From contig OZ237735.1 in NCBI GenBank assembly GCA_965178125.1, forward strand, positions 62,001 to 126,000: a stretch of DNA of 64,000 nt, read 5' to 3'. Position 1 is the stretch's first letter; each line of letters begins with the position of its first letter. The notes under the pieces were generated by a model that worked only from the letters and a program-made list of their open reading frames with translations, was not told the DNA's origin and did no database searches. Shown here piece after piece: positions 8,601 through 60,148 of this stretch. The stretch is from Bilabrum cf. latius. Taxonomy: Eukaryota. The translations under genes and the position numbers were made by a program.

Positions 8601-11600
8601 TACCAAACTGCCGGACTCATCGCGACTAGCACCTGCAGCATGGAATCCGCCCCCATCGCCATGCTCAGCAACAAAACTGCTTCCGGACACAGACAATGCC
8701 TGCGGACTGCCAATGTCGCCATCCTCGTTGGCAGCCCCTCCTGGGCTTGAGCCCACCACGTCTCCCTCGCTGGCAGGATCCGCCGCAGCGGCGCTGTCGC
8801 TGCCCTCGTCTCCGCCCTCCGCTTCCCCTTCCTCGCTGTCTTCGTCGACATCGACCACAAGAGCCTTTGCAATCGCCTAACGAGCCTTGTCGTCAGCTTC
8901 TGTAGCCCCCGTGGCGGCTTGGGAGCGAGCTACCCGCCGTGCCGCTGCCTTGCTGCCCGCCTCTGAGGCAGCAGAAAACGGGGGTGGGCGGGACTTGGAG
9001 TCTAGTAGAGCCACCCGACAGGGCCCACTCCCCGAGATGGCGTGCTGGTCGAATCCCCAAGAGAGCCCCCACCTGCTCTCAGGCGAGGCATCGGGCTCCC
9101 CGCCGTACCCCAGTGTCAGGGAGAGGCCTTGGCGAGAGTCGGGAGGTGGCTCGGGGATAGAGCCCGGGCCCCTCGGCTGTTGGCCACACACGAGCTGCAC
9201 AACCCGTTCGGCTGCCTTCGCATCGGCAGACCTGTTCCTATCCTCGTTGGGCATGCCGGCCACTGACTGCAGCCTGTCCACTTCTGCGGCTAGGGCGGCG
9301 CCCTGCAGCCGCAGGCTCCTGTTCGCAGCCTCCCTGCCCAGCACATCCTGATCAAGGCGCGCTCGTTCCGCCCTGACGACTTGCAAGGCTGCCAACATCC
9401 AGCCAGACTGGCTGGCGGGCACATCGTCAGCTACCTACATCACTCTAGAGCACCACCGGTGCCCGCCAGCTGATGCAACAGCTGCGCCAGCATCGGAGCC
9501 GGACAGTCCAGGACTGGCGGTTCCACTTGCACCGGAGGCAATTTGTACTGCCGCCAGAACGGCCCGCGCTTTGGTCCATAGACTTCGGGCGGGCGAGAAA
9601 GCGTCGTCCCACGGCGTTTGGGGCAACGGTGCAGCCTCACCGCTTTGGCTCGCACCCGACTCGATTGCTTCGCGGACCCCATCTCCAAGGCACATGCCAG
9701 CGGCCATAGTGTCAAACGCAGCGGTGACCACTGCGGCTGCCAGTTGCGTGGCCTGTGGCGCCACCGAACACATGGCCTCTGCTCGGGCGGGGCAAGGCTG
9801 CTCTGCTCGCTCCTTGACGGTGGAGCCAGCATCCTTATCAAAGGCCAGACGGATGCCCTCTAGCAGAAAGAAGAGCGCCTTGCGCTGCTCCTCCGAACTG
9901 CCCAGCCCCCAGCTGCTCGCGGGCTAAACCAGCGCCACTCGGCTTACGCCAGGGCCAGCGCGCCGACTCAGCGCGCCACCGCCACCTCGAGCCCTGGCTG
10001 CTGCTGCCTCGGCCGCAGCGGTGGTGGAGTCGGAAATCCCCCCGTCCTTTGCCACGGTATCTCCGCTGCTGCCGAGCCCAGTGATCTTGGGCTGCGGTCG
10101 GATCGGGGTCGCCGCCTTGCCGCTTCCAGCAGCAGCTGCTGCGGCAGCAGCCCCCGATTTGGACGGCGAGCCCACGGCCGCGGCTTGCTTAGCCTCAATG
10201 TGATCGGCCTCGAGCTGCGAGAGTGGCTTGAGCTCTAGCACCATGAAGCTCTGCACCAGTAGCACTAGCGTGGTCAGCACGCCCTCTGCCTCCTCTCGCT
10301 CATCGGGCGAAGAGGCCCGGCGCACGGCCCGTGCTCCCGCCTCGAGGGCACCCCGCGTCATCCGGAAGACGGCCCAGCAGTGCGAGCCGCCCAGTGGCAG
10401 GATGCGGCGGGCAAATTCCAGCGCGGGCCCCGCATTGGACAGCACCCTGGCGTGATAGGCCGGCTCTATCTTCGCTGCCGCTATCTCAAGGACGCTCAGC
10501 ACGTTGGCCCGCAGGATGTTCCTCTGCTTGTCCTCTCCGCGCAGCTTGCTAGCCTGCGATAGATGGCCCAGCAACTGCTCCACGACCTCCACCACGGTTT
10601 CCATCCGCAGAGCCCTCGCAGCTCCGTCTGGATCCCGCCCCGCATCGCCTATAAGCCCTTCCACTGCCAGCTGCGCCCACTGCGGCTCGGTGCCGTGCAT
10701 CAACCTAGCCTCCACAAGCACCAGCAGGATGTCCTTCGACTGCTGCCCGCAAGTGTGCCAGTCCTGCTGCATGGCAGCAGGGGAGGTGACGCTCCCTCTG
10801 TCGGCAGTCCCATCGTTCTCCTCTTCGTCACTTGCACTCGAGCACTGTGCCTGCTTTCTGCAGTGGGTTGTCAGTCGAGCCAGGAGGCCTAGCCAATCAG
10901 CATCCACGGCAAGCGGCTTCCCCCTGCTTTTGGTCATCTAGATGACGGCCTTCACGGCAGTATCGAGGCAGACCAGCGCGGCAAGCACCACGGAGGGAGT
11001 CGAGCACCATAGCAGCACCTCGAGCACCGCAGAGATCCCATCAGGCAAGGCAGCACCATGCGCCGCTTGCGGTAGGTACGGCATGGTGGCAGTGAACTTG
11101 TGGCACATGGCAGACAGCATCGTGAGCTTGCCGTCCAGCAAGTGCGTGAGCTTATCTGCACCACTGCACGGCTCTGCAGCGATCGTGCCTCCGTCTGTGA
11201 GCCACTTGTGCGGCGATGTCATCTCCTTACTGCTTCGAGTGCTGCCGAGCGGTGGAGGCTGCGCCGCTGCCCATTGCTCGTCCATTCGAGCGGGGGGCAA
11301 GCTGGGAGCCCCCAGCACACTAGGCACACCGGTCTTGCGGCCAAACTGACGGGGCATTCCGCTTGCGCATACCGCGTGCGGTGGCATGCTTGGTGAGCCA
11401 GCGACCTTGCCCTCGCACGCAGAAAGCACGGCGCCAAGTTCTTGCGCTTCGAATGCAAGGGCATCTTCGCTGGATCCGGGCTTGCAACAGGCACCAAGCG
11501 CCCGCTCCGCCATAGTCTACACTCGTATCCTTGACACCTCCAAGAGCCCATCATCATCGTCCTCAGCCTCGGCCTCATCGCCACCCCGTGCACCTCGTGA

Positions 11601-14600
11601 CCCTGGCCCCACCGCTCCACCCCGTGCACCAAGGGCCAATAGAGAGACAGACGCCGCCAGCAGCTCCACTTGCGCCACAGATTGCATTGAATCTGCTCTC
11701 GCCTGAGCGCTCCCAGCTAGTTCTCTGGCCGCTTTGAGCAGCCGGAGAGAAAAATGCGTCACAATTCCAGCCAAAGCTGCACTATCGATGGAACCCAGCG
11801 TTGTCGCAGCGTCACGCGCAGTCAGTGAATCGCTGGTCCCTTCGTGGGTGCTGTGGGAAGCAACGCTACCCGATGCGCTGGATAACCCTGTCCCGCCCCT
11901 GCTTCTGCCCCCACCGGCCTACCCTTGCTCATCATCCACATGTACCTGTGCATCCCCGTCCGACTCTGCGACGGACCAGTTCTCATCTGCTGCAATAGCA
12001 GACCCGCCCGCCAGCTTGGCCTGCCTCTCGGACAGCATGGCAGCGGTCGAGATGGTCGTGCTCTGCCTCCGCTGCCCTTCGTGTGCCACAGCCCGCCGCA
12101 GCAGGCCGGCTCCAGGCACAGCTGCATCCATGGACCAGCGCCAGCGAGATGATGCCTGAAGCCTGGCCACGCTTGAGAACCGACGCTTGCCGCGGTCGCC
12201 TACAGCCTGACCCTCGCCAGATCCAGCCGCGCTGCCGGGGGAAGGCAGCGCCAGCTCACTTCCGACTGGGCTCGGTGCTTCCAGTGCATCGTGCACGATG
12301 GAGGCATCACCAGTGGCCGACCGAGTGCGCGCCCTGATCTGCATGCTGCGCTCCTGCACCTTGGATGTAGCGCGCGAAGCTGTTGATGTCACCGCGAGGC
12401 ACACCTCACGAAGGGCTAGCAGGAGTGATATAATCTCAATGGCGGCGCAAACTACGCCGCTGCTCATTGATCCGTCCTCCAACAGGCTGCCGAGAGCAGC
12501 AGCACACAATTGAGCTGCATTGCAGGCATCGCACGACGCCAGGAGAACCATCGAGATGGGACCACCGGCGGCAACACACCGCCTCAACGAACCAGCAAAG
12601 GCTCTGCACGCCCATGCATGTCTGTCCCCGTTCGTCCCACCCGACGGCACCCGGCCCTGGCTAGACCTCGCGTGATCCGCCGCAGCCTTGGTCATCGCCG
12701 ACAGGCAGCTCACTACGGCCCTCCCAAGGGAGGAGGAGCCTGGCCCCAGCCCCGACCGGATTCGAGTGGCCTGCGCGATCGATGAGGCTCTACGGCGACC
12801 CGAGGCTGAGCTGCTGGTGCTGCCAGCGGAGGGCGTCCGCGTGGGCGCACTCGGCGCCATGGCATCTTGACTGCGGCTGGGGAGTTGTGCCCCTGTGGCC
12901 CCGTCGGTGGCTTCTCCTCGGCTCGCTAGGCCAACCTCGTTCGCAGCGAATGTGGCAGCATACGTGATACTCTGCACCAGCATCCGCTCCCATTCGATGC
13001 TTGTCTGAGTGCACACTGCTCCGACGTGTTCTTGTCCTGAGCGCCCATATGAGCAGGCGACAGAGAGGGAAGCTGCATCGCACACGTCCTAGTATTCCCA
13101 CCCGAGCAGCTTCCGCGGCGCGTCAACGTCTCTGTCGGCCAGATCACCCACCCGTCGGCTCCAGGCCCCCACCACGAGAGGTGCAGATCGCCCCCACAGG
13201 CTCCAGTTGCCGAGGATGCCCCGGAGGCACACAGCATGCAGCACCCGGGAGGGGCGACAGCTCTCAGTTAGCGCGCAGCACGCATCCAGCAGCCGCCCTG
13301 ACGTCCACGTCACTCCATCGAGACCTGAGCGCGCGTCCTCTTGCTTCGTACCCGAAGGTCGCCCGGCTGTGGCAGACAGCCTAGAGAGCTCCGCAGCCAG
13401 CACGCCGCACAGCCGAAGCTGGACAGCAATCTCCAGCGCGGCGCGGCTGCCTGCAACGGCTTGCGACAGCTCGACCACCAGGTTGGCAAGCTGCTGCGAC
13501 GCATGCATGCCAGGATCTCCCGCGCCTGCACCCTCTTCCTGCCCCCGAATTGCAGCGCACGCCCTCCGCACCTCACGCACCCAGCGAGCTGCGCCCAGCA
13601 CACCCATTCCCAGCCGCTGGCTTGGGGCGCAAACCAGCGAGGCAGGCCCTGCGTGACTGACCCCAGATCCTGCCGCGCACATGCGCAGAACGGCCTCAGA
13701 CGGTTCCGCCCCAGCGCCCAGCATGAGCAGTGCCTCGAGCGGGCACCCGGGCGATGCCAGCATCACCGCGGGGGACAGAAGGGCTTCGGCGCCCGTGTCC
13801 TGCTCTCCACCTCCGCGGCCCGGGGGCCCGAGACGGACGTACGCAGCAGTCGCGACTCCCGCGCTCCTCCATACCGGAGTGGTCCAGCACTGCAGCCTGT
13901 CCGTCGAAGAGGCCGCCCTGAACCCGCGGGCCACGCGCACATCCCTTCGGCTGGTGGCCGGCAGCGCCAGCTCCCAGCCAGACCCCTATGCGCCCAATGA
14001 CGTCGATCCCCCCGCCGCTGTATTGCTCTCACCCGCATCCCGCTCCCTTAAGGCTTCGCGGCAATCCCACGCTGTATCAGCCGGGATGAGCGCTGCTGCG
14101 ATGGGAGGCACGTGGGCCGCTTCGACCTACTCCGGGGTGAGGGAGACAGAGCTGTCCCCGCCATCGCCCCCCGTGAGCGTGCCAGCATCCAGCAGCCCAT
14201 CCGAGGGCCGCCGCCGCAGGGGCTTGGGTCTGCCCATCCTCCCGCTCGCCCTCCGTCTCACTGCCTGGCCCTTACCCTGGGCCCGGCCACTGGCCTAGCC
14301 CGAGCCAGACGAGCTAGCTCGCGTGGCTGTAGCCCCTCCAGCCGCAGACGAGCCTCGGGGCCTGCCCTGCCCACCATTTTCCTTGCCCTTGCCCTGCCCC
14401 TGCCCCTGCACCCCCGCTGCTCCGGCCTCCCTGCCCCCACCAGCAGTAGCAGTTTGCACCCCGCGAGACGGTGCCACGGCCAGGCTGCCCTCGCTGGGGC
14501 CGAAGAACGCAGACGATACGGTCGAGAACACAGAGGACACGCCATAGGACGCCCCCTCCACGATATTTGTCGCAGTCGCAGCCGCAGTGTCCGTGGCAGT

Positions 14601-15374
14601 GATCTGCAGCGGGGCAGGCGCGGGCAGCAGCGAGTGCAGGTCGGCGCCGTCCCCGTGGGGGCCCAGCGGCGGCGGGGCGCCGTCGTGGGATTCGCTCGCG
14701 TAACGCCGCACGAGTCCTACTCGATAGACCCGGCTGGGGACATGCAGCGACCACGGCACGGCCGGAGCGTGCCATGGAGTTGCCATGCCGGGGCCTCGCA
14801 GCGCGATCAGCTCTGCGTGGCTGTCAAGCAGGCGGGACCCGAACACAATGCACGGGCCGATAGCCCCGGTGAGATTTTCCCCTATCAAACACTGCACAAT
14901 GCTACCGTTTGGTTCCGGGATCTGGGCAGTCGCAATGAGCTGCCCGTCCAGCCAAAGCCGCAGCTGCGGCTGCCGGAAGTACTCGTGCCACATGGAGATG
15001 CAGATGTTTCGCCAAGAAGTGCACAGCCCGGCAGGTTCGTATCTTTTGGCAGCAGCTTGTACAACGCTGTGCTTTGCCCGGGTCGAAGGCACGCTCTCCG
15101 CGGCAAACCGCCAAACGGCCCGAGCTGCGACACCCACTCCGTTGCTGGCTTCCGCAGATTCACGAACGACTCTCGCCCTCACTCGTAGCGAACCTCCCTT
15201 TGACGATAAAAGCTTAATAGCAGTAAACTCTCCCAGATCCCCAGCGACACGAATCCACACTGAAGCGGCCACTCCACTGTTCGCAGCCACTCCTTGGACA
15301 GGAACTGCAATCCCCGGTATCCCCGAAGATTCAGCTTGCGGGAGCGCTGCGAAATAGCTAGTTTGGTACTACAT
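2646..15374 (-). CDS. Giant BEACH-domain protein (ConA-like, PH-BEACH, Vps62-like segment, WD40), ~4242 aa, apparently intronless, 18 internal TAG
   Basis: One frame broken only by TAG at 15369, 14295, 14127, 13986, 13089, 11919, 11517, 10938, 9924, 9435, 8877, 8496, 6507, 6312, 6249, 4770, 4122 and 3876. Ends TAA at 2646. BEACH motifs: TNLEYLHSLNRFASRT, FRDLRRPIGAL, YGSHFS, FDVTDRLF, EVKEITPEWY, VSSRMHHWIDLMFGHKQRG, HYGQSP. WD-like VAVGCADGTVRLLD. Confidence 0.9.
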
Positions 15375-15501
15375 CAATTGGCGTGAGTTGAAAACGCAAT
15401 TATGTTCAGGAGCTGATGAATCCTGTCCTTGAAGGCAAGCGCAGTGCCTGGACACTTCCAAGCGATCATGCAGTGCACCCACCTACCGATATCGCGCTTC
15501 T

Positions 15502-16974
15502 TCAAGATACCCCACCGCTCTCATCCGCCGCCGCCGGCTGCTCGCTGCCCTCTGCGATCACCGCAGCCACCACCTCAGCGCACTCCCCGTGTCCCCTCAC
15601 TTCCGCCAAGGCCCGCATCCCCTCCATCGCAGCTGGGTCCAGCACGTGCCTGGCCCTGCGCATCCGACCAGCCAGCTCCAGGGGCCGCCCCTCCTCGCAG
15701 CACTACCGTGCAATGCCCGCGTCCTGGCGCGCGTCCCCCGCCCACCGCCAGCGGAGCACCCGCGCCGCCCTCTCCCTGTTCTCGACCCTCAGTCGCCAAT
15801 ACCTCCACGGCGGGCCCGTAGGCCAAACTGTGGCGTACACAGCCTCAGGGGGCAGTCTGTCCTCGCCCGCAGTCAGGAGAGCAGTCACCACGTCCTGGTG
15901 TGGGGAGCAGACAGCCTGAGGGACCTTCCGACCCCTGTACGACGCGATCTGCCTGTCCCTGGCTGCCATGGCGCAGGCCACCCTGAGCGCCCGCCAGTCG
16001 CCAAAGTTTAGCTAGATCCTCCGCTTCCTCCCGGGCACTCGGAGGAACATCCTCACGATGTCCGCGTGTCCGCCGGTCACGGCCTCCATGAACGCGCGGT
16101 GCTTGAAGGCCCGCAGGTCGTACTTGCGCCCCTTTCTGTTGAGGGCCAGCAGCTCGCTCACCACAGCTGTGCTCCCTTGTGCGCATGCCCTCGTCAATGC
16201 ATCACCCTCCTCGGCATGGATGTCCACCTTCCTGTCCCCGTCGAGGCCGAGGAGCGTACGCACCACGTCCACGCGATTGCTCTCGCACGCGGCTCGGAAT
16301 GCAAGCTCATCCTGGGCGTGCACGTTCACCACGCCGTGGCTGCCCGGCCCTAAATTCAGTAAGAACTGGACGGCATCCAAATGTCCGCCGCGGCAGGCAG
16401 CGATGAATGCCGCCTCATCGTCTGCATGGATCTTCGGCGCCCGGACCCCCTTAATGTCCAATAGAGCCCGCATGACTGCCACGTGACCACAGGCACACGC
16501 ATGCTAAATTGGTTTACTATATGCATAATCTGCGCCTGTTGCGTCCGCACCGCTTTCCAGCAGCATCCTAACCATCTCGACGTTTCCGCTACCGCACGCA
16601 GCGTGTATCGGTTCGGATAGCATCTGGGCATCGTTAAGCGCACCAACACCAACATCATGCATCACATACCGGGCAACTGCTTCATTGCCACTACGGCAAG
16701 CATAAGACAGCACTTGCACTACGGCTGATCTCATAGGTGGCTGGCTGAAAGCACCAACAAGTCCAGATCTTCGGATTGCTTCAGCGCACTCAAAATGACC
16801 CTTGGAACAAGCGTTCTAGAAGCATGACGACCACAGCTGGGGCTCATGCTACAGAATAGACTCGCCGCTCTTGGCTGCATTGATCGCCGCCACTACTTGA
16901 CTTGTTGCACCGTCACTTGCTGCATCGAGAACGCCATGCAAGCTGAAGATGTCATAGCTATGGTCGGGATCCAT
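15502..16974 (-). CDS. Ankyrin-repeat protein, ~490 aa, 5 internal TAG
   Basis: Ankyrin units such as IHAACGSGNVEMVRMLLESGAD, AACRGGHLDAVQFLL and RACAQGSTAVVSELL lie in one frame. TAG at 16849, 16816, 16504, 16012 and 15703. Ends TGA 15502. Start MDPDHSY is assumed. Confidence 0.8.
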
Positions 16975-25995: not shown

Positions 25996-28900
25996 ATGCA
26001 GCAAAGGATGCATACCGATAAAAGCCCACAGTTGTGCTTTTACCATGCTCCAGTTCCAGTGAATGCCAGTAATGTGCAGTCGCTCGCCGCCAAACAGCCG
26101 ATCCTTGACCGCACTGATGATACCGGTGCGGATAGTCTCTCCAATGATGCACTATAGGCTGGCCACGTGAGCGTTGTGGCAGAAAAGTTCCATCAACGTC
26201 CGCAAGGCGGGTCAGACCGGCTTGCCGCGCCGCTCCAGCAAGCCGGCAGCAGCTAGGCAAGGCCAGCCTGGAAGATTCTTCAGCCGTCGAATCGATCCGT
26301 ATTTCCATTTGGATTCGGAGAGTCTGACGTTGTACCTGGACAGCCGAGTGATCCAGCATATTAGGATTGGCCAAAGGCAGATGGCAAGCTAGACTCGTAC
26401 CCGCAGAGGTGGTCCTCGTCGCTGCAACAAGGGGGCATCGCAGAGGAAATGTCCCTAATTGCAAGCCAGTCTGTCGGCCTGCGCTCGCCACGACTGGGCC
26501 GCGTGGACCACTTGGTGCCCCGGCCCCGCACCGAAGCGAGCATCCGCACCGAGCAACAGGCCAGCCCGCCAGCGAGCAACGTCACCGTGGCGCTGTAGAA
26601 TCGGCCGGAGCCCGTCGCAGTTAGACTGGCTCTCTACAAGACAGCCGTGTCCAACAGACCCACTGGGTCGTGCCCTCCCAGCAGCATGGCCCCTGCCCGG
26701 GCTGGAGCTCCCGTGTTTGAGCTGTCCGCTGCCAGCGACCCGGAGCCAGAGCCCGGTATCGGCAGATCGCCCCGCCTCAGGCCACGGCAGACTCGGAGGC
26801 AGAAGGAGGGTGCAAGCCATCGGGAAGGTCACTGGCCCCCTGGGTTCGCGGACGAAGCGATGGTCCCCGCTCCTCCGACGACACAACCCCACTAGCATTG
26901 GCAGGGATTGCCCTCGCGGCGACCCACCAGTGCAGCAAGGGCACGGATGACCGAGAGGCTCAGGCTGCAGCACGCTGCGACAGAGGCTAGGAGCGAAGCC
27001 GGGGAGCGGAAGCACGGCCAAGATCGCAATCCAGCGCAGATACTGCCCCCCATCGGTTCCGCACCAGGCCGACCTCACTGGCAGCTTCGCCCCTCTCCGA
27101 ATCGGCACGGGAGTGCAGCCAGCAGATGGGCACTGGGAGAGGCCGGGCGATACAAGGATGTCGGTCTCGGCTCGATCTCTACGTCCCAAGAGCAGAGAAT
27201 AGCCGACTTCTCCCCGCGCAGTACTACGAGCGCCCATGCCTAGGGGCAAAGAGGCGCTCCTCTGGACTCAAGACAGCGGGAGTCTGCCACAAGATCTCCA
27301 GCTGACAAAGTGCGATGGAGAGGGCTTGCTGCCAGCCCACTGTCTGCCAGACGAAAGTTGACTGTGTCCTAGCAGTCTACCGCCCTTGCTCAAGACCACG
27401 ACGAGCGTCGCTCGGACGCAAAGCAAGGCTCGCGGAACCACGGCAAGATTGTATCGCTTCACAAGCAGCACTTGCTGCTGCACGCCGGAGCCGATGGTAG
27501 CACACTGCAACAGCGAGCCGAACATGCGCCTGCAGCATCCTCCTGGCAAGGTCAAGTCGAAATCGCCGCCGAGGCAGACAACAGGGGCGAGCACGTTGAG
27601 TCTCCAGCGGCGCCGTAGGCCGTGCTGCGGCTCCGCGAGACCTCCAGGCGCCAGAGCCTCATCAATAGGGGCTTGGTAGATGCAGCCGGCAGCCCTGTGC
27701 CCGATACGGCCGGCACTGGGGGACAAGAGTCCAAGTCAGGCGACGCAGGGAGCAGCACTCCTGCTCCTCCATCCTAGCACAGGCATGGGTCGTCGTCACC
27801 TCGCTGGCGGCTCGATGCCGGAGACCACGGTCGGCACGAACAGCTTACTGGGGCTGAGCTCTTGCAGGGAAGGGGGCTGCTGAGGGATGCTCGGGGCGCT
27901 GTGCCAGCTTCAGATGCTGCAGATGAGCACCGTGCTCCAGCACTATAGCAACGGCACAGTCGCCGTGCTGGAGCTGTGTAGGGTCATCAGCAACGGCATG
28001 GCAGCAAGGCGCACGCACCCGTGCGAGCCAGCAGCCCTGACACGCCGGCAAGTGAGTTTGCGGAGCCGACTAGCCCAAGGGACGGCGATCAACTTATGGA
28101 TGGTGATACGTTCCTGGTCTCGGATTCCGCAGCACTGGGAGGTGGCAGCCCTGCCCATGATGCCCTAAACACCCTGGTGCCGACCAACGAGGCGCCTTCG
28201 ACGCCACCGGCATCGAAACCGTCCAGCAAGCCGGAGGAGTAGGCTGCTCTGGCAGGCCCTGCTAGTATCAAGCCGCCTAGGACTATTTCCAGTCATGGCG
28301 CAGGCTCAGGTCGGTCTCATCGCCCAACGCGGCGTCCTCGTGCGCCGCGTGCACCTGGTGCACCTGGAGGCAGTCGGCCCGCGCCACCACCTGCCAGGCG
28401 AGGGGGTCAGGTGCAGGAGCAGAAACAGGAGCAGGAGCACGTGTACAACAGCACGCCGCTTGGCAGGACAGATCGCCCAGGGAGTGCTGCCTCTCGACGC
28501 TAGCGCCCTCGGCGAGCCAGCACGCTCGTGGTAGACGACCCCAGCACGCCCTTCCATGCCCCGGTCGAAGATGACACCCGGGAGGCACGGAGGGACGGCG
28601 ACAAAGCGGAGCCCGCGACTCAGGCTGCTGGATAGGCGCGCCATAGAGGACGCAGGGCCTCGGCGTTCGCCGTGAACCACCTGCTCCGCGGTGCCGTGGG
28701 GAGTCTGCACGACCACGTCGGCCTCCAGGAACACGTCGGCCTCGAGGAGCTCGGTGACAGCGGGCTGGCAGCGATGCAGAGGCCGGCCGTGCGGGCGAGG
28801 AGCAGGCGTGTATCCCAAGTGACCATGGGTGCAGGTGCGCACTACGGTCCCACCGCTGCTGCCGCCGATGCCTCGGGCCGGCACGTGTACGACAGCAGCT

Positions 28901-29742
28901 CGGGTGGTGCCCGGGGTCCACTGCGAGCGCCCAGGGAGATCAAGCGGTTCCCGGCGCGGAGGAGCGCCAGGCGCCCGTCAATTGTGGACAACTTGGGCGC
29001 CCGCGCCATGGTGAGCGATAGGATGGAGCAAGGAACTGGAGTGCATGCCCTGGCCGGACGACGTGGCAAGCTCAGGGCAGCCGCGTCGTTCTTGGGCGCG
29101 TCAGTGTCATCTCGGCGGCGATCGACGGGTGGCATTGGGGTGGCTGCTCTGGGCCAGCCTGCTCTAGGTACCGACCTGCATGAGCCAGAGCGATCAGATC
29201 GGCCTAAAGCAGATGGCACGGTGCTGCAAGCTCTGCATGGCCCCTCTAGGAGACCACCGGCCCCGGTGCGTGCCCCGCTGGGCATCGATCGGCCCGGGGC
29301 GGATGCATCGAACGATGTGCCGCTCGTCAAGCCGAAAATAGACGCTGGTCCCATCAAGCCAACCAAGAAAGAGCGCATTGATTCGTCTGACCAAAAAAAG
29401 GCGATACCTCCTCCAAAGGAGCCCGCGCGTGTGGGGACTGAGCCGCAACCGCAACGTGCTACGCGTCCGAGTGGGTCGGCCCCTGCTCCTGGCCAGTCTG
29501 GGCCCTCTGCGCTCAGCGGGCTGCCTAGCTTTGGGCCATCCTCCGGCCAAAAAGCTCCAAGGCATGGACTGTCGCCGCGGCCCACGTCTGCGGGTGGCTG
29601 GAGCGTCGTCAGCTCGGAAAGCGGCGGGAGCGACCGGAACGGCGAGGACGAGCAGGGCGTGGACGTGGTAGGGATGGTGGCACTGCAACAGATAGAAGAG
29701 GAACAGGAAAAACGCAGAGGCAAGCGCCAGGAAAGGCGCTAA
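25996..29742 (+). CDS. Large low-complexity/disordered hypothetical protein, ~1248 aa, 14 internal TAG
   Basis: Single frame with no TAA/TGA until TAA 29740. TAG at 26155, 26254, 26362, 26596, 26893, 27241, 27370, 27616, 27775, 27946, 27979, 28240, 28501 and 28633. No recognisable domain. Confidence 0.7.
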
Positions 29743-30374: not shown

Positions 30375-33300
30375 ATGGCGGCATCGGGGGCTGGATCGGG
30401 TACTTCGTCTGCTTCTGCTGCATCTGGAGGGGCAAGTAGCCCTTCCACTGGGCTGAAGCGTGCACGCACCACGGAATCGTCGTGAGAACTGGCTTCGAAA
30501 CTGAAGTGTTTGAATTCCGATTTTACATGTGGCTTATTTGAAGTCACGACAGAATCACACCGTAAACATTCAATTGAATATACGAAACGTATCCTTAATT
30601 ATCGTATGCAGGACTTTCACGGACGAAATCGCGGAGCTGGGCACAAGCTAGAAGGATGTTTGGGGCAGGCCTCCCATGCCACCTTTGGACGATAGGAAAG
30701 ATGATTTGGGTAAGAGCCGCAGGCCCGTGCTTCTTTTTGGCTCCTTGTGTAGCGTAGAAATACCTGTTGTATCTCCATGGTCCCTTCGCTGGTGCTTGGG
30801 TCGCAGTAATGCAATGGAGCTACATCGACATGTATCAAGGGGATCCCCTGCCTGCTAACCCGAATCCGGCACGAACCATGCCAGGCTCCAGGGAAGGCCC
30901 AGTTCCTGTTATTCGACTGTTTGGCATCACAGCGGAGGGGAACTCTGTGATGGCCCATGTGCACGGTTTCACGCCATATTTCTACTGCCAGGTGCCGTCC
31001 TCGTTCGACCCCAGCCGGCACATCAAGGAGTTTTAGATGGCTCTGGACCAGGCCCTGAGGGGTGCCGGGAAGCAGTTTGAGCGCATGCCCAAGCGTGTAT
31101 TGGCCGTGAACATGGTGGAGCGCACCTCGATCATGTACTACATGGGCAAGGCGAAGCAGCGCTTTCTGCAGGTGTACGTGGCCATGCCCACCGTGGTGCC
31201 TGCCGCCCGCCGTATGCTCTCCAAGGGCATCCGGCTGCCTTCCCAGGGACACGCGGCCAGCTACCAGTGCTTCGAGGCGAACTGCACCTTCGTGCTTCGC
31301 TTCATGATCGACCGCGGCATCGTGGGGCACCAGTGGCTGAGGATGCCCAAGGGCAACTACAAGGTGCGCAAGCAGTCCCAGTTCCGGTCCAAGTCGCAGT
31401 GCGAGTTTGACGTCGTCTACGACAGCATCGATGCCAAGGCGACGGAGGGCGAGTGGCAGACCATCGCTCCCTTCCGCATCCTGTCCTACGACATCGAGTG
31501 CAAGGGCAGGAAGGGGCACTTCCCGGATCCTAAGGAGGACCCCGTGATCCAGATCGCCAACGTCCTGCAGCTGCAGGGCACCAACGAGCATCCCGTCAGG
31601 AACGTGTTCGTGCTGGGCACTTGCACTCCCATCGCCGGCGCGGACGTGCTCACCTTCCGCACTGAGAAGGAGATGCTCACCGCCTGGGCCAAGTTCGTGC
31701 TGGCCACCGACCCGGACGAGCTCACAGGGTACAACACGGACAACTTCGATATGCCGTACCTCATCGAGAGGGCCAGGCAGCTGGGAGTGAAAGAATTCGA
31801 GCACATCGGGCGCATCCAAGGGGAGGGCATCCGCATCCGAGACACCACGTTCCAGAGCGCGGCGCACGGCAAGCGGCAGAACAAGGAGACCACGATCGAC
31901 GGGAGGGTCAGCTTCGACATGCTCGAGTACATGAGGCGCAACCACAAGCTGAGCTCCTTCTCCTTGAACGCCGTGTCCGCCGAGTTTCTCGGCCAGCAGA
32001 AGGAGGACGTGCACCACAGCATCATCGGGGACCTCCATGAGGGCTCCCCTGATGACCGCAGGCGTCTGGCCGTGTACTGCCTGAAGGATGCCTGGCTGCC
32101 CTTGCGGCTCATGGACAAGCTCATGGTCATGGTCAACCACATTGAAATGGCGCGAGTGACAGGCGTGCCCCTGGATTTCCTGCTCAAGCGCGGCTAGCAG
32201 ATCAAGGTGGTGAGCATGCTCTACCGCAAGTGCCTCAAGGACGGGCTGCTCATTCCGACGATGGAGCGGCAGGGGGCATCAGCTGACGACACCACATACG
32301 AAGGAGCCACCGTGATCGAGCCAAAGAAGGCGTACTACGACGAGCCCATCGCCACGCTGGATTTCGCCTCGCTGTACCCCAGCATCATGCAGGCCCACAA
32401 CCTTTGCTACTCGACCCTGCTGCCCCCAGGCACCGACGCGGGGCTGAAAGAGGGCGACTACGAGGTGACGCCCACCAGGCACCGCTTCGTCAAGCCCTCG
32501 GTCAAGAAGGGGGTCCTGCCAGAGATTCTTGAGGAGCTGCTGTCAGCCCGGAAGCGCGCCAAGCGGGACATGAAGGCTGCGACGGACCCGATGGTGAAGG
32601 CGGTGCAGAACGGACGGCAGCTGGCGCTCAAGATCAGCGCCAACTCGGTGTACGGGTTCACCGGCGCGACGGTGGGCCAGCTGCCGTGCCTCGAGATCTC
32701 GAGCTCGGTGACCTCGTACGGCAGGCTCATGATCGAGCAGACCAAGGAGGCCGTGGAGAGGATGTACACGGTGGCCAACGGGGCCCCGGCCGATGCAGAC
32801 GTGGTGTACGGCGACACGGACAGTGTCATGGTCAAGTTCGGAGTCCCCGACGTCAAGACTGCCATGGAGCTTGGCGAGAAGGCTGCAGACGAGGTGACCA
32901 AGCTGTTCCCCCACCCCGTGAAGCTCGAGTTCGAGAAGGTGTACTTCCCGTACCTGCTCATGAACAAGAAGAGGTATGCCGGCCTGTACTGGACGCAGCC
33001 TGAGAAGTGGGACAAGCTCGACACAAAGGGAATCGAGACTGTGCGGCGAGACAACTGCGCTCTGGTGAGGCAGGTGGTGACGCAGGTGCTGCGCAAGATT
33101 TTGATCGACCGCAGCATCAAGGACGCGATCGAGTACACCAAGGGGACAATCTCTGAGCTGCTGCAGGGCAAGGTGGACATCAGCATGCTGGTCATCACCA
33201 AGGCGCTGGGCAAGGGCGCCTCGGACAGCGACTACAAGGCCAAGCAGGCGCACGTGGAACTGGCCGAGAGGATGAGGAAGAGGGACCCGGGCACTGCACC

Positions 33301-36055: not shown

Positions 36056-36762
36056 ATGAGGGCGATCGCACTGGTACTGCTAACGTTTGGGTTTGCGGTC
36101 GTACTTTCTGTAGAAGCTGCGAGGAAGGATCCGAAAGAATGCGAAGGTAAGCAATGAAGGCAGCACTTAGCAAGCAAGCATACACGTGGCGGTATCCGAA
36201 CCAACGCTGTGGCTTGGCGCGTACCTGAAGGATGTTCCGGTGCTATGGAATATTGTATCGAATCAATCCGAATGATGCGGCTTTGGATCAGCTCTAGCTC
36301 CCCAGAAAGTCGCCAGAAGTGCATTGGCAAGCTTTTTTCATCGCAGTATGTCGCAAGGTTCTTACGGACGTCAGAGATGGTCTTGACGAGGGAGATTCCA
36401 AGGATCTCGTTGCAATTGAAGGCGCCATTGATTCAGAGTGCTCAAAATTGCGGAAAGCGAAGCCTGACGGGCCGGAGCGCAAGCTGTGTTACTTTATCGA
36501 GCCGGTCAAGCGTAGCATCAGCTAGCCGATGAAGAACGGTGTGCCGGTTGAGAGAATCTGCAAGCGCCTCAAGAAGAGCGCCCCGGAAGTTTGCGAGATC
36601 CGCTTCCCCGAGAAGCTGGACCTGAGCAAGACTGACATCACCAAGCTGCGTGTGAGGCAGCTCAAGAAGATTCTGAACGAGCGCGGCCTCAAGTGCGACG
36701 GCTGCCTGGAGAAGGGAGACTACGTTAGAAAGGTGCGGGAGGCGATCAAGGACGAGCTTTGA
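36056..36762 (+). CDS. MANF: MANF/ARMET-family ER-resident protein, ~168 aa, 2 exons, 1 internal TAG
   Basis: Signal peptide, then ECE|VC across intron 36147-36346. Saposin-like Cys pattern, then KLRVRQLKKILNERGLKCDGCLEKGDYV and C-terminal KDEL-TGA. TAG 36523 lies inside the saposin-like domain. Confidence 0.88.
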
Positions 36763-40494: not shown

Positions 40495-41439
40495 ATGGCG
40501 GGCGAGGAGGCTGCTTATGACGAGCAGCTAAAGCTCCTCATGATTGGAGACTCCGGTTAGGCATTCAATTTTCCCGTTGGCCCATAGTTTGCGGCAGTCG
40601 CCAAGACATGTACTCGCTCTTTTCTCCCCAGCCGCCACTCTCTTTCGCATCGACCCATACAGGCGTTGGGAAAACTTGTTTGCTATTGAGATTTGTTGAG
40701 AGCAAGTTTATGGACTCATTTATCACAACAATAGGTATGAATCGCATGGGATGCCGAACGTGGTCAGCATTCGCGTTCCGAGCTCTACTGAATTGATTTG
40801 GAATGATGAGCCCCGTAATTTTCTGCAGGTATTGATTTTAAAACCAAGGTGATACCGATCGGTGGGAAAAGGGTCGAGCTGCAGATTTGGGATACAGCCG
40901 GTAAGTGCTGAATCGCGACGTGCTGCGCTTGTTCGGACCGGTTGGCGTGCCGCAGGGCATGGCGCGCGCGTTGCTCCAGCGCCGCTCTCACGCAAGAACG
41001 ACCTACATATTTCGCAGGGCAAGAGAGGTTTCGTACCATCACAGCATCGTACTTCCGGGGGGCGCAAGGAGTTGCGCTGGTGTACGACAAGACAGCGCGG
41101 GACTCCTTCGAGAACATTGAATCATGGACCGAGCAACTGCACGAGCATGGCGACCCGTCGTGTGCCTCCGTCGTGATCGCAAACAAGTCGGACCTGGAGG
41201 GCGAGGTGAGCGACGAGGAGGGCGAGGCGCTCGCCCGGCGGTTCGGGGTACCCTTCTTCGCTTGCTCCGCCAAGACCGGGACGGGAGTCGACACGGCCAT
41301 GAAACGCCTGGGAGAGCTAGCGTTGGATGCTTTGGAAAAGGGTGCAGGGGCTTTGACGGGAGCGGGGGCAGGGTCGGAAAAAATTGGTTTGGATACGGCC
41401 GACAAGGGCGGTAAAGCTGGCGGCGGTTGTGCTTGTTGA
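40495..41439 (+). CDS. Rab8/RabE/Sec4-like small GTPase, ~208 aa, 4 exons
   Basis: Exons 40495-40555, 40663-40734, 40829-40900 and 41018-41439. Motifs IGDSGVGKT, FITTIGIDFK, WDTAGQERF, NKSD, SAK and a CXC terminus. Confidence 0.92.
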
Positions 41440-41683
41440 AACAGTCATTCTGATGTGATTGCCCTTGGTATGCCGCTAGAAGTATTGGCTGTTTTTTCTG
41501 TCTTCCCTTGGCGATGGGGGTTGCCAATCCTGGTGCTCAGCCAGTGGCGAGGCTGCCTCGCCGCCGGCGAGGCATCGCCGCCGCCGGGATCCAGCAGCCT
41601 GATAAGCGTGACAACGGTGGGAAGTGAACCTTGCGCGCCGTTGCGTACATCTTCGGCTTCCCAGTGCACGGTTTACCATCACA

Positions 41684-42037
41684 ATGGATTCTTGCGTCAT
41701 AATTATTGAGAAAAGCTCCATCTTGCGCCAGCTTGGGTTCGTGGGCCTTGCAGTCTGGCCATTCATTCTGATCAAGGAGCAGGCCTACACGCAGAAGGGC
41801 AACTCCACGCACACGCTGCGTCACGAGAGGATCCACATTCGGCAGCAACTCGAGTGCTTGCTTGTTGGATTCTTGATCCTGTATGCTGTGCAGCTCCTCG
41901 TCGGCCTGCTGCAGCACGGCAGTCTCGGCGACGCATACCACGCCGTCTGTTTTGAAATGGAAGCGTACGACAATGAAAACAAGGGGTCGTATCTGAGGCG
42001 CAGGCGGCCTTTCGCATTTCTGCAGTATTTGTTATAA
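41684..42037 (+). CDS. Small HExxH-motif membrane protein of bacterial/phage-like type, ~117 aa
   Basis: GLAVWPFILI...LRHERIHIRQQLE...AYHAVCFEMEAYDNE...YLRRRRPFAFLQYLL. Intronless. Ends TAA. Confidence 0.75.
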   Translation: MDSCVIIIEKSSILRQLGFVGLAVWPFILIKEQAYTQKGNSTHTLRHERIHIRQQLECLLVGFLILYAVQLLVGLLQHGSLGDAYHAVCFEMEAYDNENKGSYLRRRRPFAFLQYLL

Positions 42038-53393: not shown

Positions 53394-54839
53394 TCACTCC
53401 GCACCCTCGCCTTGATCCACCTCCTCGTCCTCGCTATCAGACAGCTCAGTAGCACCGCCTTCCCCGTCACCACTTCTATTTTGCCTATCCGTACCCGAAT
53501 CCCCATCGACAGCTTGGTCTGGACCACCGACAGCTGGCGCTGCAGCTGATCCCTTGCCGCTCGTCAAATCACCCGCCGGAGCATCCGGGACGGGGCTGCC
53601 CTGCTCCGCCTCTCCAGCAGGGGGCGGTACCACCTGAGTGCTCGCGTGCCGGGCCACCGCCCCGCTGCCGCCGCTAGTAGTCCCGCCCGCCAGAGGAGCA
53701 ACGGAAGCAGGGCCAGCAGCGTCCGAGTCTTCCGTTACTGTGCCTGTTGGCGCGGCGCGCTCTGCAGCGCCCGTGTCACCGCTCGTTTCACCGGCCGTCT
53801 CCTGTCCCGTGGCGGCCCCGGCCGCCTGCAGTGCCGCCTCCACCGCCGAGTCCTCTGGCATGCCGTCCGGGGATACGAAGTCCTCCTCCGTGGCGTACAT
53901 GATCTTGAGCACGCGCCTGGCCATGTCTGTGTCGGGCCCCGCATACCCCTGCAGCAAAAGCTCGATGTCCCTGAGCTTGCTGTAGTAGAAGTCCCTCTCC
54001 TTCACCGCCCCCTCGCACTCGGACTGCGCCTCTTTCACCTCGCCCTCGAGGACAGAGACGCGCTGGCGGAGGGCAGCGCCGCCCCCCTCCGGGCCCCGTG
54101 CTGTTCCCCGTGCCCCCGGCCCAACCCTTGCACCGGCTCCCCTCCCAGTGCCAGTGCCGCGCGTGCCTCGGGACCCCACGGTAACCCCCCCTCGGCCTGC
54201 TCCGGGAGCAGCTGCCCCCCCCGAAGTAGCTGGGGCACCCGCCCGACCCCGCGCGCCCGACCCCTGAGTGCCGGGAGCCCTGCGCGGAGCTCGGCCCCCT
54301 GTGCCTTCTCTGGCGGTTCCCCGACCCCTTCTGCTGCGGCCCGCGCCCGCCCCACGGCCCCGAGCACCTGCTCCGCTGCCCTTGCTCGCAGTACCAGTGC
54401 CAGCGCCTCCGGGGCGAAACTCAGGCATGCTAGCCGCTCCTTTCCCTGCCTACCGACGCTTCCAAGCGTTGTAGCTTGACATGTCGCCAACGTTTGCCTC
54501 AAAAAACTGCTTGGCAAACTGCATCGCTTCGAGCGAATCCTGGAATCTTGCTCGTGTCAGCTTGGTTGGATCCAAGACCTTGTCGATTCCATGCTTTGCA
54601 AAGACGTTCTAGATTATCTTGTAGTTGTTTAGCATTTCGTGCGGGGCCTTGCAGTCCCACCTCACCTTGTGCATCGGCACATCGCCATAGATGGCGTCGA
54701 GGATCTGGCAGAGCACCGCCCCTGAGGCCGTTTGCTCGACTTTGGTAAGGCTCAAATCAAACGAAGAGTTCAACCACTCTAATATAGCGACGCGACCCAC
54801 GAAAAAAGAGGAATTCATCATGCCTGCGAAGTAGGACAT
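53394..54839 (-). CDS. EB1: Microtubule end-binding protein EB1 (RP/EB family), ~481 aa, 2 internal TAG
   Basis: CH domain GRVAILEWLN...KVEQTASGAVLCQILD...NYKII[TAG 54609]NVF...RFQDSLE. EBH domain KERDFYYSKLRDIELL. Second TAG at 54450. Ends TGA. Confidence 0.95.
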
Positions 54840-55144: not shown

Positions 55145-58100
55145 TTACCCCCTCTTGGAGCTCCCTGACCCGACCCCATGCCGCAGGGACACGCCCACGG
55201 CGTCCACGGACGGCGTCACCGAAGCGGCCTCGAGCACCTTGAACTGCCGCTGGGCCGTGTCGTACTTGAACAGAATCTTCATCGAGCCGTCCGTCAGCAC
55301 GGCCGGTCCGCTGCCCCAGATCCGGTCTGCCCGCATGCCTCCACCCTCCCCCACCTGGTTCTCATCCCCCTACCCCTACCCCTATCCCTATCCCTATCCC
55401 TATCCCTGCCCCTCCGGCACCCTCACGGCGTACAGCCCCAGCAGCGGGCCCCTCGCCTCCTGGGCGCCCTGAAAGGCGAGGAGCACGTGCCTGCTCCTCC
55501 GCTCGTCCATCGCGTCCAGCGCCGCCTCCAGCTTGCTCCTCTGGTAGGGCGCGGCCAGGAGGGCCCTCTGCAGCGCGTTCCTCACACGCTTGTGGTTCTC
55601 CTTGCACACGGACAGAGTGCGGCCCGCGCCCGCCCACCCGCCCGTGGCCCCTGCGTGCAGACTCGCGCGAGTCTCCCGCCGCGCCTCGGTTGCAACCGCC
55701 TCCAGCACGTCCGCAGACTGCGGCGAGGACTCGGCCGCGGTCAGCGCCAGCTCCTCGAGATCTCCCAGTTCCCTGCCCTCGCGCCTCCTGTCCCCCTCGC
55801 CTTGGCGTGCCCTGGTCCGGGGGCTTGGACTGCCCCTCCTCCCACTCAAGCTCTCCCCCCGCCCGTCCTCCTCATTTTCCTCGTCCTCCTCCAGCCCCAA
55901 GTCAGAGAGGCCATCCGCAAACCCCCCCTTGCCCCCGTTGCTCCCGTTGCTCCTGGCTCCACTTCCACTTCCATTTCCTCCAGCCTTCAACCCCGACTGC
56001 ACGCCCGACCGCCCCGCACCCTCCTCCCTGTCCCCCCCACTGTTCCCTGCCTCGCTGTCGTCCTCCATGAAACGGAGCCGCTGCACGCTCCTGTCCCTCC
56101 CACTCCCACTGCCCCTCCCGCTGCCCCTCCCTCTCACCCTCTCCGAGCCAGCACCTGTCTCAGTGGCACGCCCGCGGCTGCTTGGTCTGCCCCCCAGGCC
56201 AGTCTCGCTGCGACCCCCAGTCGGTGTGACCAAACTCGCCACGGTGTTCCCCCCGTCCAAGCCTCCAACGCCGCGCGATGCGGAACCGGGCCTCCGCCTT
56301 GACCTTGACCTGGACCTGGACCTTGAGGCAGACCGCCTGGCCCTGCGCCTCGTCTCGAGCGCCCGCTCGATGGACAGCAGCTGTCCCTTCGCCGCCCGTG
56401 CCCCCTTGCTCACACTGCGCTCTTCCCACGCGCGCACCCGCTTCTCGAGGTGCTCCGCCGCGCCCTCCAGCGAGACCTCCTGCCCGCTGGGCACCTCGAA
56501 TGCCACACCCCCTGCGGATCGAGCCGAGAAAGGAACGTCCTGACCACGAGCGATGCCCCGGCCCCTCGACGGGGTCACCGAGAGAACAGTGGCGGGCCCG
56601 TTCGTCCCGATCCGGCCCGCCGATGCAGGCGGGTCCCACACGGGGTGCAAGTCCTCGCCCAAGATGCCCGCCGCGCCCCCGACGGTCCGCCTGCTCCCTG
56701 GGCTGAGGCCCAGCACATCTGCGGCCCGACCCGATGCGCCGAGCATCTTGGTGGGCCTGTCTCTTGGCATGGGCGACTGCCCTCGACCTTGGCCTTGTGC
56801 CCCCAGTCCCCCGTCGGCTGCCTGGCCCTCGCTCTCGCGGTGCCTCTCCTGCGCCGCAATGTCGTGCAGGTCCCGCCTCAGCTGCTCCGGCCACGACTGA
56901 GCGGGGGGATCCAGCACCACGGTGCGGCGGTGCTGGTGCTGGTGGTGCGCGTCCCGGCTGGGCGAGCTCGGGTGGCTCGGCACTGGCACCAGGTCGGCCC
57001 CACCGTGCGGTGCACCCGCCATTTCCCCCGAGGGCATGGCCCTCCAGCTGGTCATGGTCCCGTGCCCCCGCATGGGGGTACCCTCCCTGGAGGGGAACAG
57101 GGCTGGACCATGCGGGTGCCCGCCCGAGGCCGATGCTGCGGTCGAAGAGGGCAAGGGACGGCCCACACCCGCCCCAGACCTTGCCCCAGACCCTCTTCCA
57201 GCGCCCGCGGTGGCCCTGGGCCCCCCCGCGCCCAAGGTCCCTGCACTGGCCAGCTCTTTCTCCAGCGCCGCATCCGACTCCCGGACGGCCCGCGCCGCCT
57301 GCTCCTCGTCCGTCCCTCCTCCGCTCCCGCCTCCCGCCTCGGGGTGCAGGCTCTCTCCCTTGAGAGCAGAGAGGGCGTCCTTGCTCGCCCGAGCCTCCCT
57401 CCTCGCATGGGACGCGCCGAACTCGGCCGCCTGCAGCCGGGCCTTCAGGTCCTCCCGGCTGCGGTGGTAGGCCCGCAGCCGCTTCTCCAGCTCGCCCACT
57501 CGCGCCCGCAGCTCATCCCCCTCCACCCTCCGCTGCTCCGCCAGCCGCTCCGCCTCCCCCGCCGCCTGCTGCAGCCTCGCCAGCCCACCGTCAGCGTCCT
57601 CCAGCGCTCCGTACAGCCGCCCGTTCGAGTCCCTCAGCCGCTGCACCTCCCCCTGCGTGGCCTTGAGTTGTTCTCTGGCCTCCTCCAGCTGTGCCCTGTT
57701 CCTTGATGCCTCCGCCAGCTGCACCTCCACCTTGGACCTCACGCCCTCCACGGCACGCTGCACCGCTGCAGCCACGCTGCCGCCGGAGCCTTCGCCCGTG
57801 CTGCCGGCATCGAAGGGAACCATCGCCCCCGCTGCGCTCATCACACCAGACCCACCCAGGGAGCCGCCCAGCCCGTCGCTGTCCTGGTCCGCAGACTCGC
57901 GCAGGGGAGGCAGCGACACCCCTGCCGCCGCAGCCGCAGCGTACACCTCTGCGAGCTTCGCGTCCAGCCGCCTGGCCCTATGCACGGCCCCGCCCAGCCT
58001 CTGCTCAGCGGCTGCCCGGGCCTCCTCAGCCGCCTGCACCTGCGCCCGAGCCCCCGCCAGTTGTTCCCTGGCTTCCCCCAGGGCCGCCTCTCTGGTCTCT

Positions 58101-60148
58101 CTCTCGTCCCGCAGCTGCGCAGCCTCCTGTCCCAGGTGCCCGATCGCGTCTGCCATCATCCCGCGGCTGGCCACTCTGCCCGGGGAACTGGCGCGGCTGC
58201 TCCCGCGGCTGCCATCGTACCCTCCCGCGTCCGTGGCCCGCTGAAACCTGGACATGGAGGAGGACAGCAGCTCCTGCCCCGCTGCCAGAGCCGAGCCCCT
58301 GCCCCCGCCCCCGCTCCCACCGCCCATGCCCTGCGCCCAGGTGCCTGGTCCCGGGAGCGCCAGCATCCCAGCCCCGCGTCCTCCACCAGCGGCAAACGAG
58401 GACGAGGACGAGGACCCGTACGGCCTCGCCGCCGCCGCCCCCAGGAGCCTCAGCTCCGCCCCCTTTGCTCTCTCCTCTGCCACACGCAGGGCCCTCCTGG
58501 CTTCCTCCAGCTGCCCCTGCAGCCGACCCACCTCTGACTTGAGCCGGGAGCGGCTGCTGTCACCCCGCATGGCCCGGGCCACCGCCTCGGCTTCGCCCTG
58601 TCGCGCCCTCCGCGCATCCTCCTCGGCCCGCTGCGCCCTTTTCCTGAGCTCATCCCCGGCGGACTGCTCCCTCTCCACCCTCTCCTGCGCCTGACGGGAC
58701 CGCTCCCGCAGCTGCGCCAGTTCCTGCTTGGCCAAATCAAGCGCCCGCCGCCCCCCCGCGTCCAGCTCTTTCTCCTCGTCTCCCCCTGCCCCCCACTTGC
58801 CCTTGCCCTCTCCCTAGCTCCCCTGCAGCTGGGCCTCCAGGCGACGAGCCCGGGTCCTCAGCGTCTCCGCCTCGGACCACGCGGTCCTGGCTTGTTCCCT
58901 GGCCTTATCCAGCGCCGCCCGCGCCCCATCCAGATCCCTCTGCAGCCGCCCAGCCCGCTCCTCACCCCCATCGGCAGTCTCCTCCAGCTCCCGGCGAGCC
59001 CTCCGCGCGCCATCCAGCTCGGCTCGCAGTCGTGCGCACTCGTCACCCAGCCTCCTCGCCTCCTATTCTGCCCTCTCTCGACCCCTCTTCTCCCTCTGGG
59101 CTTCAGCGCGCCACTGCTCGGCTGCACCGGAGGAGGGCGCGGCTTCGAAGGCCTGGCCCTTGGCACTGCCGTGGCTGTTGCTATTGCTGCCTGCAGGCCC
59201 ATGGCTAAAACCCGCCCCTGCCTCAGTTGCTGTCCCCGTCCCGGCCCCGACTCGTCCACTGGAGCTTGCCACCAGCGCGCCCGTGCCGCCTGCTCCCCTC
59301 GGTACCACCTCCCTCCTGCCCGGCCCCTGGATCGACGGGCCGTCCTCCTTCCGATCCGGGCCCATGGGCGGAGAGGCCGGCCGGGAGCCATGCGCTCCAC
59401 TGGTGGGTGTCCTCCCAGTGGGCAGGCTCCCCGCACCGCCGTGCGATGCACCCTGTGCCCCGCCCAGCGCCGCGATGCGTCTCGCCAGCTCCTCGTTCTG
59501 CCGCTGGAGGTCCCCGAAGGCCCTCGCCCCAAAGCTCTCTCCCAGCAGTGCCCCAGAATCATGAGATGCCGCGCTCGCCCCGGTGCGTCCCAGGACGCGG
59601 CTGGCGGCAGCGGACCGGGGCGCATCGTCCTGCTCGCGCAGGTGGCCGGCGGGCGTCTCCGAGGCGCTGTCCAGCCGGGCCCGGCGGCGGATGCTGCCTC
59701 GGTGCCACGATTGCTCGTCTGGCTCTGAACTATGCGGAACAGGGGCTGCTACTGCCCGCTGCGGCGTCCGCAGCGACACTGGGGCCTGCTCGCCTGATAC
59801 CTGGCTAGAATATCCTTGCCTGCCACTGTGGCCCTGCCATAGACCGCTCGCGGTACCTGCATCGGTCGCAGCCTGCATACCATCCATCCCTTTTCCACCG
59901 ACGTACGCAGAAAATTTCGCTGTTTCGGCTGGATTTCTGCTCCACGAGTCACTGGAGCTCGTTCGCTACCAGCCAGAAGCACGCCTGCCGGGCTCCCCTG
60001 GCACAACAATGCGATCATCCCCTCGAAATGATCTATTTTCTTCGACGGGGGACACCTCTTCGACTCGAGACTCTTCTAATGGGCCGCTCGAGCGCATGTG
60101 CCGATCCCATGGGATTGCCGAAGTTGGAAAGTCTGTAGGGAATGCCAT
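55145..60148 (-). CDS. Coiled-coil protein with C-terminal CKK domain (CAMSAP/Patronin-like), ~1667 aa, 9 internal TAG
   Basis: CKK-like ENHKRVRNALQRALLA...HVLLAF...LLGLYAV...IWGSGPAVLTDGSMKILFKYDTAQRQF...SVTPSVDAVGV. TAG at 59966, 59063, 58814 and six at 55400-55370. Ends TAA. Start uncertain. Confidence 0.8.

Follow-up and report, generated by a model that had tools for sequence, protein, structure and literature searches.

Nuclear codes in which UAA and UAG both specify glutamine (NCBI table 6) are found in ciliates, Dasycladales, Hexamita, Streblomastix, and Amoeboaphelidium. The two codons are nearly always reassigned jointly, and the accounts in PMC5304391 and PMC11687900 describe a split between them in only a handful of nuclear lineages. 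As presented in PMC11687900, table 15 is the code used for two phyllopharyngean ciliates, Hartmannula sinica and Trochilia petrani, and is noted for Protocruzia tuzeti; 93.5–100% of the C-terminal alignments in H. sinica and T. petrani fall on UAA. The fornicate Iotanema spirale is described in PMC5304391 as reading UAG as Gln, while UAA stays a stop. According to the same two papers (PMC11687900, PMC5304391), UAG encodes Leu (table 16) in the rhizarian exLh and in some ciliate genomes assembled from TARA metagenomes, and Ser in Scotinosphaera. No report of a nuclear code change in stramenopiles was found in the full texts of open-access papers and bioRxiv preprints. A published or forthcoming report on such a change may exist, as the sequence data date from 2025.

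We analyzed one 64-kb stretch of DNA (the window), which has a GC content of about 62%, together with a 7.6-kb relative, the metagenome contig L001. Pfam searches of the window identified a BEACH domain, DNA polymerase delta (Pol delta), photolyase, PTPA, sulfatase, ribosomal protein P0, a PLP-dependent decarboxylase, EB1, CKK (CAMSAP-like), ankyrin repeats, ARMET, SRP19, a ubiquitin-conjugating enzyme, a short-chain dehydrogenase, a DHHC palmitoyltransferase, and a Rab GTPase. Within positions 41000–60500, RNA-like contigs from three runs contain 12 joints, 10 of them bounded by GT..AG or CT..AC. Typical eukaryotic genes and joints of this kind show that the window is nuclear DNA with spliceosomal introns. 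The RNA data are assembled contigs without readable poly(A) sites or transcript ends, and the poorly covered region 54671–55321 was left out of the evidence. We conclude, with a probability of roughly 87%, that in the nuclear code of this organism UAG encodes Gln and only UAA and UGA terminate translation, which equals NCBI table 15.

Under the standard code, the longest open reading frame (ORF) in the window has 1137 aa. Once TAG counts as a sense codon, ORFs of 4303, 1259, and 1707 aa appear. In 14 genes (13,316 codons), TAG occurs 50 times in frame, and TAA and TGA do not occur at all. The numbers of TAG, TAA, and TGA triplets in the alternative frames of the same genes are 71, 20, and 212 (+1) and 70, 25, and 203 (+2). 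When the gene at 25996–29739 and a small ORF are added, the totals are 64 TAG, 0 TAA, and 0 TGA in 14,681 codons, while the alternative frames hold 20–28 TAA each. If TAA encoded Gln, and if the ratio of TAA to TAG mirrored that of CAA to CAG, the 14 genes should contain 9.5 (pooled) to 12.5 (per gene) in-frame TAA, and all 16 ORFs 15.1–22.6; the Poisson chance of observing none is at most about 1e-4. The power of this test comes mainly from the BEACH gene and the genes at 25996–29739 and 50084–51997, and only about 1.3 TAA are expected in eight strongly biased genes (13 TAG, 14 CAA, and 138 CAG in 4386 codons). An antisense ORF to SRP19 (38984–40252, − strand) with eight TAGs was left out of all counts, as it is without a codon-position signal.

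Because TAA was treated as a terminator when the ORFs were delimited, its absence in frame is to some extent a product of the method, and a triplet scan and a list of ORFs under table 6 served as controls. In the scan, every stop triplet on both strands was considered, and 60 same-frame codons were scored on each side. Coding-like sequence was present on both sides of 18 of the 776 TAG triplets, none of the 310 TAA triplets, and none of the 1431 TGA triplets. It was present upstream only at 18 TGA and four TAA triplets (2646, 29740, 55145, and 14701). The TAA at 14701 is an antisense artefact of the scan and was set aside, and the TAA at 42035 remained under the threshold because the codon bias of its ORF is weak. 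Under table 6, only three long TAA-ended ORFs lengthen among the sense-strand ORFs of identified genes. The RNA joints also yielded six spliced gene models, and these stay open, with seven in-frame TAG, no TAA, and no TGA. Reading TGA as Trp in addition to TAG as Gln was rejected because frames on both strands then merge indiscriminately.

The preliminary description of this DNA had listed four genes that terminate at TAA (2646, 29740, 42035, and 55145), and each of these codons does close a long ORF once TAG is sense. The 22 complete gene ends in the window comprise 18 TGA, four TAA, and no TAG. Two of the TGA stops directly follow recognizable C-termini, that of the ARMET gene (36760..36762, + strand) after ...KDEL and that of the intron-containing Rab gene (41437..41439, + strand) after a ...GGCAC tail. 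The four TAA codons are true translation ends, and the base on their 3′ side is A, A, A, and G. By sequence comparison, three of them (42035, 29740, and 55145) are supported by homologous or orthologous C-termini, and the fourth (2646) is assigned from codon statistics alone.

The TAA at 42035..42037 (+ strand) ends a 117-codon ORF (41684..42034, + strand; MDSC...FLQYLL) that has an HExxH-like HERIH motif and belongs to an uncharacterized conserved family. At E ≤ 0.001 it has 1392 homologues, of which the best (P0127) is 93% identical over 117 aa, with its residues 1–117 aligned to residues 1–117 of the query. The statement in the preliminary description that the family ends at ...FLQYLL proved accurate. 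Among the best 150 of the 1392 homologues, 140 match to query residue 112 or further; 93 of these 140 end within two residues of the query end, and 120 of them end between −4 and +6. Past the TAA, the frame continues for 103 further codons, antisense to the sulfatase coding sequence (CDS). The small ORF matches no named family in Pfam or NCBIfam. Its second-position GC is below that of its neighbors, and its final codons are antisense to the untranslated 3′ end of the sulfatase transcript (in the region 42000–42098), where RNA contigs begin at 42000 and 42022.

The TAA at 29740..29742 (+ strand) closes a fast-evolving, low-complexity gene located 5′ of Pol delta. Its ORF (25963–29742, + strand; 1259 aa) has weak codon bias, and the CDS (25996..29739, + strand) consists of 1248 codons with 14 TAG, 0 TAA, 39 CAG, and 28 CAA. 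Pfam gave no match for the protein. The ORF is nevertheless a real gene. Its orthologue in L001 (BLASTP E = 4e-28 over 307 residues) likewise precedes Pol delta. The orthologue terminates at TGA within about six residues of the window TAA, and a second stop follows two codons on. An alignment of the last 90 residues of the two proteins scored 100.5, versus a shuffle mean of −0.8 (sd 11, maximum 38). The proteins encoded at 25996–29742 and at 1–1566 of L001 are long, rich in R, S, P, and Q, and of low complexity, and they are only 36% identical although Pol delta is 90% identical. The window protein is probably disordered, and its 14 TAGs are the densest set in the window.

The TAA at 55145..55147 (− strand) ends a CKK (CAMSAP-like) gene, whose CDS (55148..60148, − strand) has 1667 codons with nine in-frame TAG and no TAA; the full ORF (55145–60268, − strand) has 1707 aa and 10 TAG. 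This stop had been placed about a dozen residues past the CKK domain, and the measured distance is 14–15 residues. The Pfam match covers residues 1555–1692 of 1707 (profile positions 9–118 of 119), with the stop 15 residues on, and aligned solved CKK domains end 14 residues ahead of it. The coding score changes from +0.33 to −0.22 at the TAA, and GC falls to 0.53. An RNA-supported EB1 intron (54823–54943) is located about 200 nt downstream; therefore, there is little space for another exon. Word-based searches with the C-terminal parts of the CKK and BEACH proteins found no homologues, which is uninformative either way. Within the CKK gene, a hexanucleotide repeat, (GGR TAG)x6, at 55370–55405 (− strand) supplies six in-frame TAGs and reads GQGQGQGQGQGQ. 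The repeat is placed in a loop between the two conserved halves of the CKK domain. It is a TAG-bearing microsatellite that has expanded within a coding region, and RNA contigs appear cut there.

The fourth TAA (2646..2648, − strand) terminates the BEACH-domain gene, whose ORF (2646–15557, − strand; 4303 aa, 19 TAG) was identified by Pfam with E = 1.1e-77. Its CDS (2649..15524, − strand) contains 4292 codons with 19 in-frame TAG, 0 TAA, and 0 TGA. Ahead of this TAA the coding score is +0.18 and first-position GC 0.71; downstream the two values are −0.30 and 0.50, and GC is 0.59. The loss of coding signal past TAA, together with the homologous C-termini at three of the four sites, supports the proposal that TAA terminates and TAG is sense.

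On the opposite strand, the TGA end of ORF 1374–2552 (+ strand) is located about 94 nt from the BEACH TAA. Of the P-type ATPase actuator domain, this ORF contains just the initial portion (Pfam E1-E2_ATPase, E = 2.8e-8, residues 104–136), and its codon-position signal is weak; a search of solved-structure sequences gave no match for it. The ORF may be a pseudogene, a fragment of a gene, or a single exon of a split one.

TAG is a sense codon and encodes Gln. The Pol delta ORF has three in-frame TAGs, two of which are past the likely start. The TAG at 32195..32197 (+ strand) sits in the block ...LLKRG[TAG]QIKVVS, and its column contains Q in 119 of 119 homologues, in L001, and in two solved Pol delta chains. 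The other TAG falls in a variable column (R in 68, H in 24, and Q in 17 homologues). A protein from another public data set (P0001) matches 938 of 945 Pol delta residues (99%) and has Q at both window TAG positions; it stops just ahead of a window CAG codon. In EB1, the in-frame TAGs at 54450..54452 and 54609–54611 (− strand) both align with Q in the solved EB1 and EB3 chains (2/2). The two sulfatase TAGs (42777–42779 and 42882–42884, − strand) are opposite E and M of bacterial sulfatases, in variable columns. Spliced RNA contigs from two runs span 42000/42022–43464 with no differences. The sulfatase TAGs are thus unchanged in the RNA contigs, and therefore they are neither spliced out nor edited.

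L001 repeats the pattern of TAA as terminator and TAG as sense. Its Pol delta is 90% identical to that of the window in protein and 79% in DNA, and it has nine TAG, no TAA, and no TGA in frame, while TAA occurs 6 and 13 times out of frame. The window has Q at eight of the nine L001 TAG positions and E at one. Between the two orthologues (L001 4183–7191 and window 30878–33883), none of the 11 TAG positions (two in the window and nine in L001) is common, which suggests that TAG and CAG may interchange freely and quickly as synonyms. The alpha-galactosidase gene of L001 carries one TAG at the Q of a conserved VNQD block, and its TAA stop lies two residues beyond the end of the solved plant enzyme, in a weak C-terminal alignment segment. 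Internal TAA codons at conserved Gln columns, which had been named beforehand as the contrary observation, were found in none of the examined CDSs of the window or L001. The preliminary description had left room for a rare sense use of TAA. With no occurrence among 14,681 window codons and 1,773 L001 codons, about 16,500 together, such a use is bounded at roughly less than 2 in 10,000.

Three other readings were weighed against UAG-only reassignment. The TAGs might be untranslated, lying in in-frame introns, edited in RNA, or belonging to pseudogenes, so that the code would be standard and a TAA stop trivial. Spliceosomal introns do exist in this genome, as the 12 joints and their terminal dinucleotides attest. 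However, the RNA contigs of two runs cross both sulfatase TAGs with neither a difference nor a joint, TAGs occupy invariant Q columns within conserved blocks of Pol delta and EB1, and all 50 TAGs in the 14 genes keep the reading frame; we regard this reading as extremely improbable. A context-dependent code, of the type known in Condylostoma, karyorelict ciliates, and Blastocrithidia, would give UAG and/or UAA a sense meaning inside genes and a stop meaning only near mRNA 3′ ends. Such a position-dependent stop would likewise put TAA only at gene ends, and one TAG is compatible with it. In the DHHC palmitoyltransferase gene, 46 Ala/Gly/Trp-rich, poorly coding-like codons separate the TAG at 61645 (+ strand) from the TGA, and this is the sole spot where TAG could be imagined as a terminator. 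Apart from this ambiguous case, TAG ends none of the 22 genes, and the TAGs are scattered along entire genes, in the BEACH gene from codon 25 to codon 3894 of 4304. TAA is never internal and so gives no hint of a double meaning. No codon was found in both roles; TAG is internal 64 times and terminal 0 times, and TAA is internal 0 times and terminal four times. A code of this type is therefore improbable here.

In the third reading, the code is the ordinary table 6, with UAA and UAG both encoding Gln and UGA as the sole stop, and TAA is rare simply because codon usage is biased toward GC. Translation of the four TAA-ended genes would in that case proceed to the next TGA, 149, 58, 103, and 67 codons beyond. 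The frames are indeed open over these distances, and few TAA are expected in the genes with the strongest bias, where CAG outnumbers CAA about tenfold (138 vs 14). Against this, in-frame TAA is absent where 9.5–22.6 are expected, and it is absent even from the gene at 25996–29739, which has 28 CAA, 39 CAG, and 14 TAG. The stretches downstream of the TAA codons score as non-coding, from −0.22 to −0.50. At individual sites, the extension at 42035 would overrun the family C-terminus and continue on the strand opposite the sulfatase CDS, the L001 orthologue of the 29740 gene terminates at TGA in that place, and the extension at 55145 would enter the EB1 5′ exon region. We consider table 6 quite improbable. 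The reading in which UAG alone is reassigned is preferred, on a sample of one window and one relative with only four TAA ends.

A decoding mechanism can be proposed along the lines set out for Iotanema and the rhizarian exLh in the description of PMC5304391. Since UAG is read as Gln and UAA is not, the decoder would be expected to be a tRNA-Gln with the anticodon CUA, which should be unable to pair with UAA because of a C:A mismatch at the wobble position. This tRNA probably arose from tRNA-Gln(CUG) by one anticodon change, and a UUA isoacceptor would be absent. On the side of termination, eRF1 would have lost efficient recognition of the G in UAG while still reading UAA and UGA. The eRF1 N-domain motifs tied to stop reading in PMC5304391 are GTS, NIKS, and YxCxxxF. 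The absence of visible tRNAs from the window, remarked on at the outset, was borne out: ARAGORN and Rfam searches of the window and L001 returned no tRNA and no other RNA family. An eRF1 gene was likewise not found within the window or L001.

Several genes of the window have unusual internal features. The gene at 50084–51997 (− strand) contains, at 50300–50900, about eight tandem copies of a 20-residue unit (...SSGQSIAGAAPAGVHMQPAS...), and RNA contigs break and rejoin near 51019–51053. The PTPA gene has a very long (GA)n dipeptide insertion of about 70 Gly-Ala pairs at 34700–35100 (− strand), between the two halves of the PTPA domain. Contigs of ribosomal protein P0 (window 44247–45211) are also present in X21, a run of marine metatranscriptome data. 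They share the splicing of the window intron at 44307–44473 and depart from the window sequence at 15 listed positions. A close relative is therefore expressed in the sea.

The affinity of the organism and the distribution of the code change were considered from Pol delta. The nearest named relative is Cafeteria roenbergensis, with 64% identity. In a quick single-gene maximum-likelihood tree, the window and L001 are sisters (SH-aLRT 100) on a long stem within a 10-row clade that includes Cafeteria (SH-aLRT 99). From this gene, the organism may provisionally be regarded as a GC-rich, intron-bearing stramenopile grouping with Cafeteria. Among 80 metagenome loci with Pol delta relatives, only L001 has TAGs at aligned Gln positions. 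Relatives at 63–72% identity have no in-frame TAG. Eight other loci (≤52% identity) carry one TAG each, aligned with A, S, V, or Y, and seven of these eight also have TAA and/or TGA in the alignment, which fits read-through introns. A scan of prokaryote genome contigs for Pol delta gave one 381-base fragment only (69% identity). The reassignment looks evolutionarily young, as it is so far confined to the window organism and one sister contig. We lean slightly toward the view that this is the first departure from the standard nuclear code in Stramenopiles, a young change of UAG alone to Gln in a narrow Cafeteria-related lineage. If the change is young, comparison with standard-code relatives could order the events and tell whether the new tRNA or the eRF1 change came first. 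For annotation, gene callers using the standard code fragment most of the long genes and table 6 overruns the TAA stops, so that table 15 is the right setting.

Compared with the described systems, this locus would add a further independent split of UAG from UAA, in another supergroup, and thus a data point on how eRF1 can lose UAG and keep UAA. The case is distinctive in its high GC content, its use of UGA as the main stop, and its close standard-code relatives. It shares with the table 6 codes the change from stop to Gln and the presence of TAG at Gln columns. However, TAA is a sense codon in those codes, and here it is absent in frame from about 14,700 codons and ends four genes. The rhizarian exLh, the TARA ciliates, and Scotinosphaera have likewise reassigned UAG and kept UAA as a stop. 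The amino acid is Gln in the window, as indicated by eight of nine orthologous positions and an invariant Q column, and in this it differs from all three. The closer parallels are the lineages in which UAG encodes Gln. I. spirale, as described in PMC5304391, shows the same uncoupling of UAG from UAA and the same predicted origin of a tRNA-Gln(CUA) from tRNA-Gln(CUG) together with an altered eRF1; however, it belongs to Metamonada, UAA is its dominant stop, and a T32G change was seen in its eRF1. The table 15 ciliates, as far as PMC11687900 describes them, match the window in the code itself, since UAG alone has changed to Gln, UAA and UGA are the stops, and UAG is used along gene bodies as a synonymous Gln codon. 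In contrast to those ciliates, the window comes from a provisionally assigned stramenopile with about 62% GC and spliceosomal introns, and its main stop is TGA (18 of 22 gene ends).
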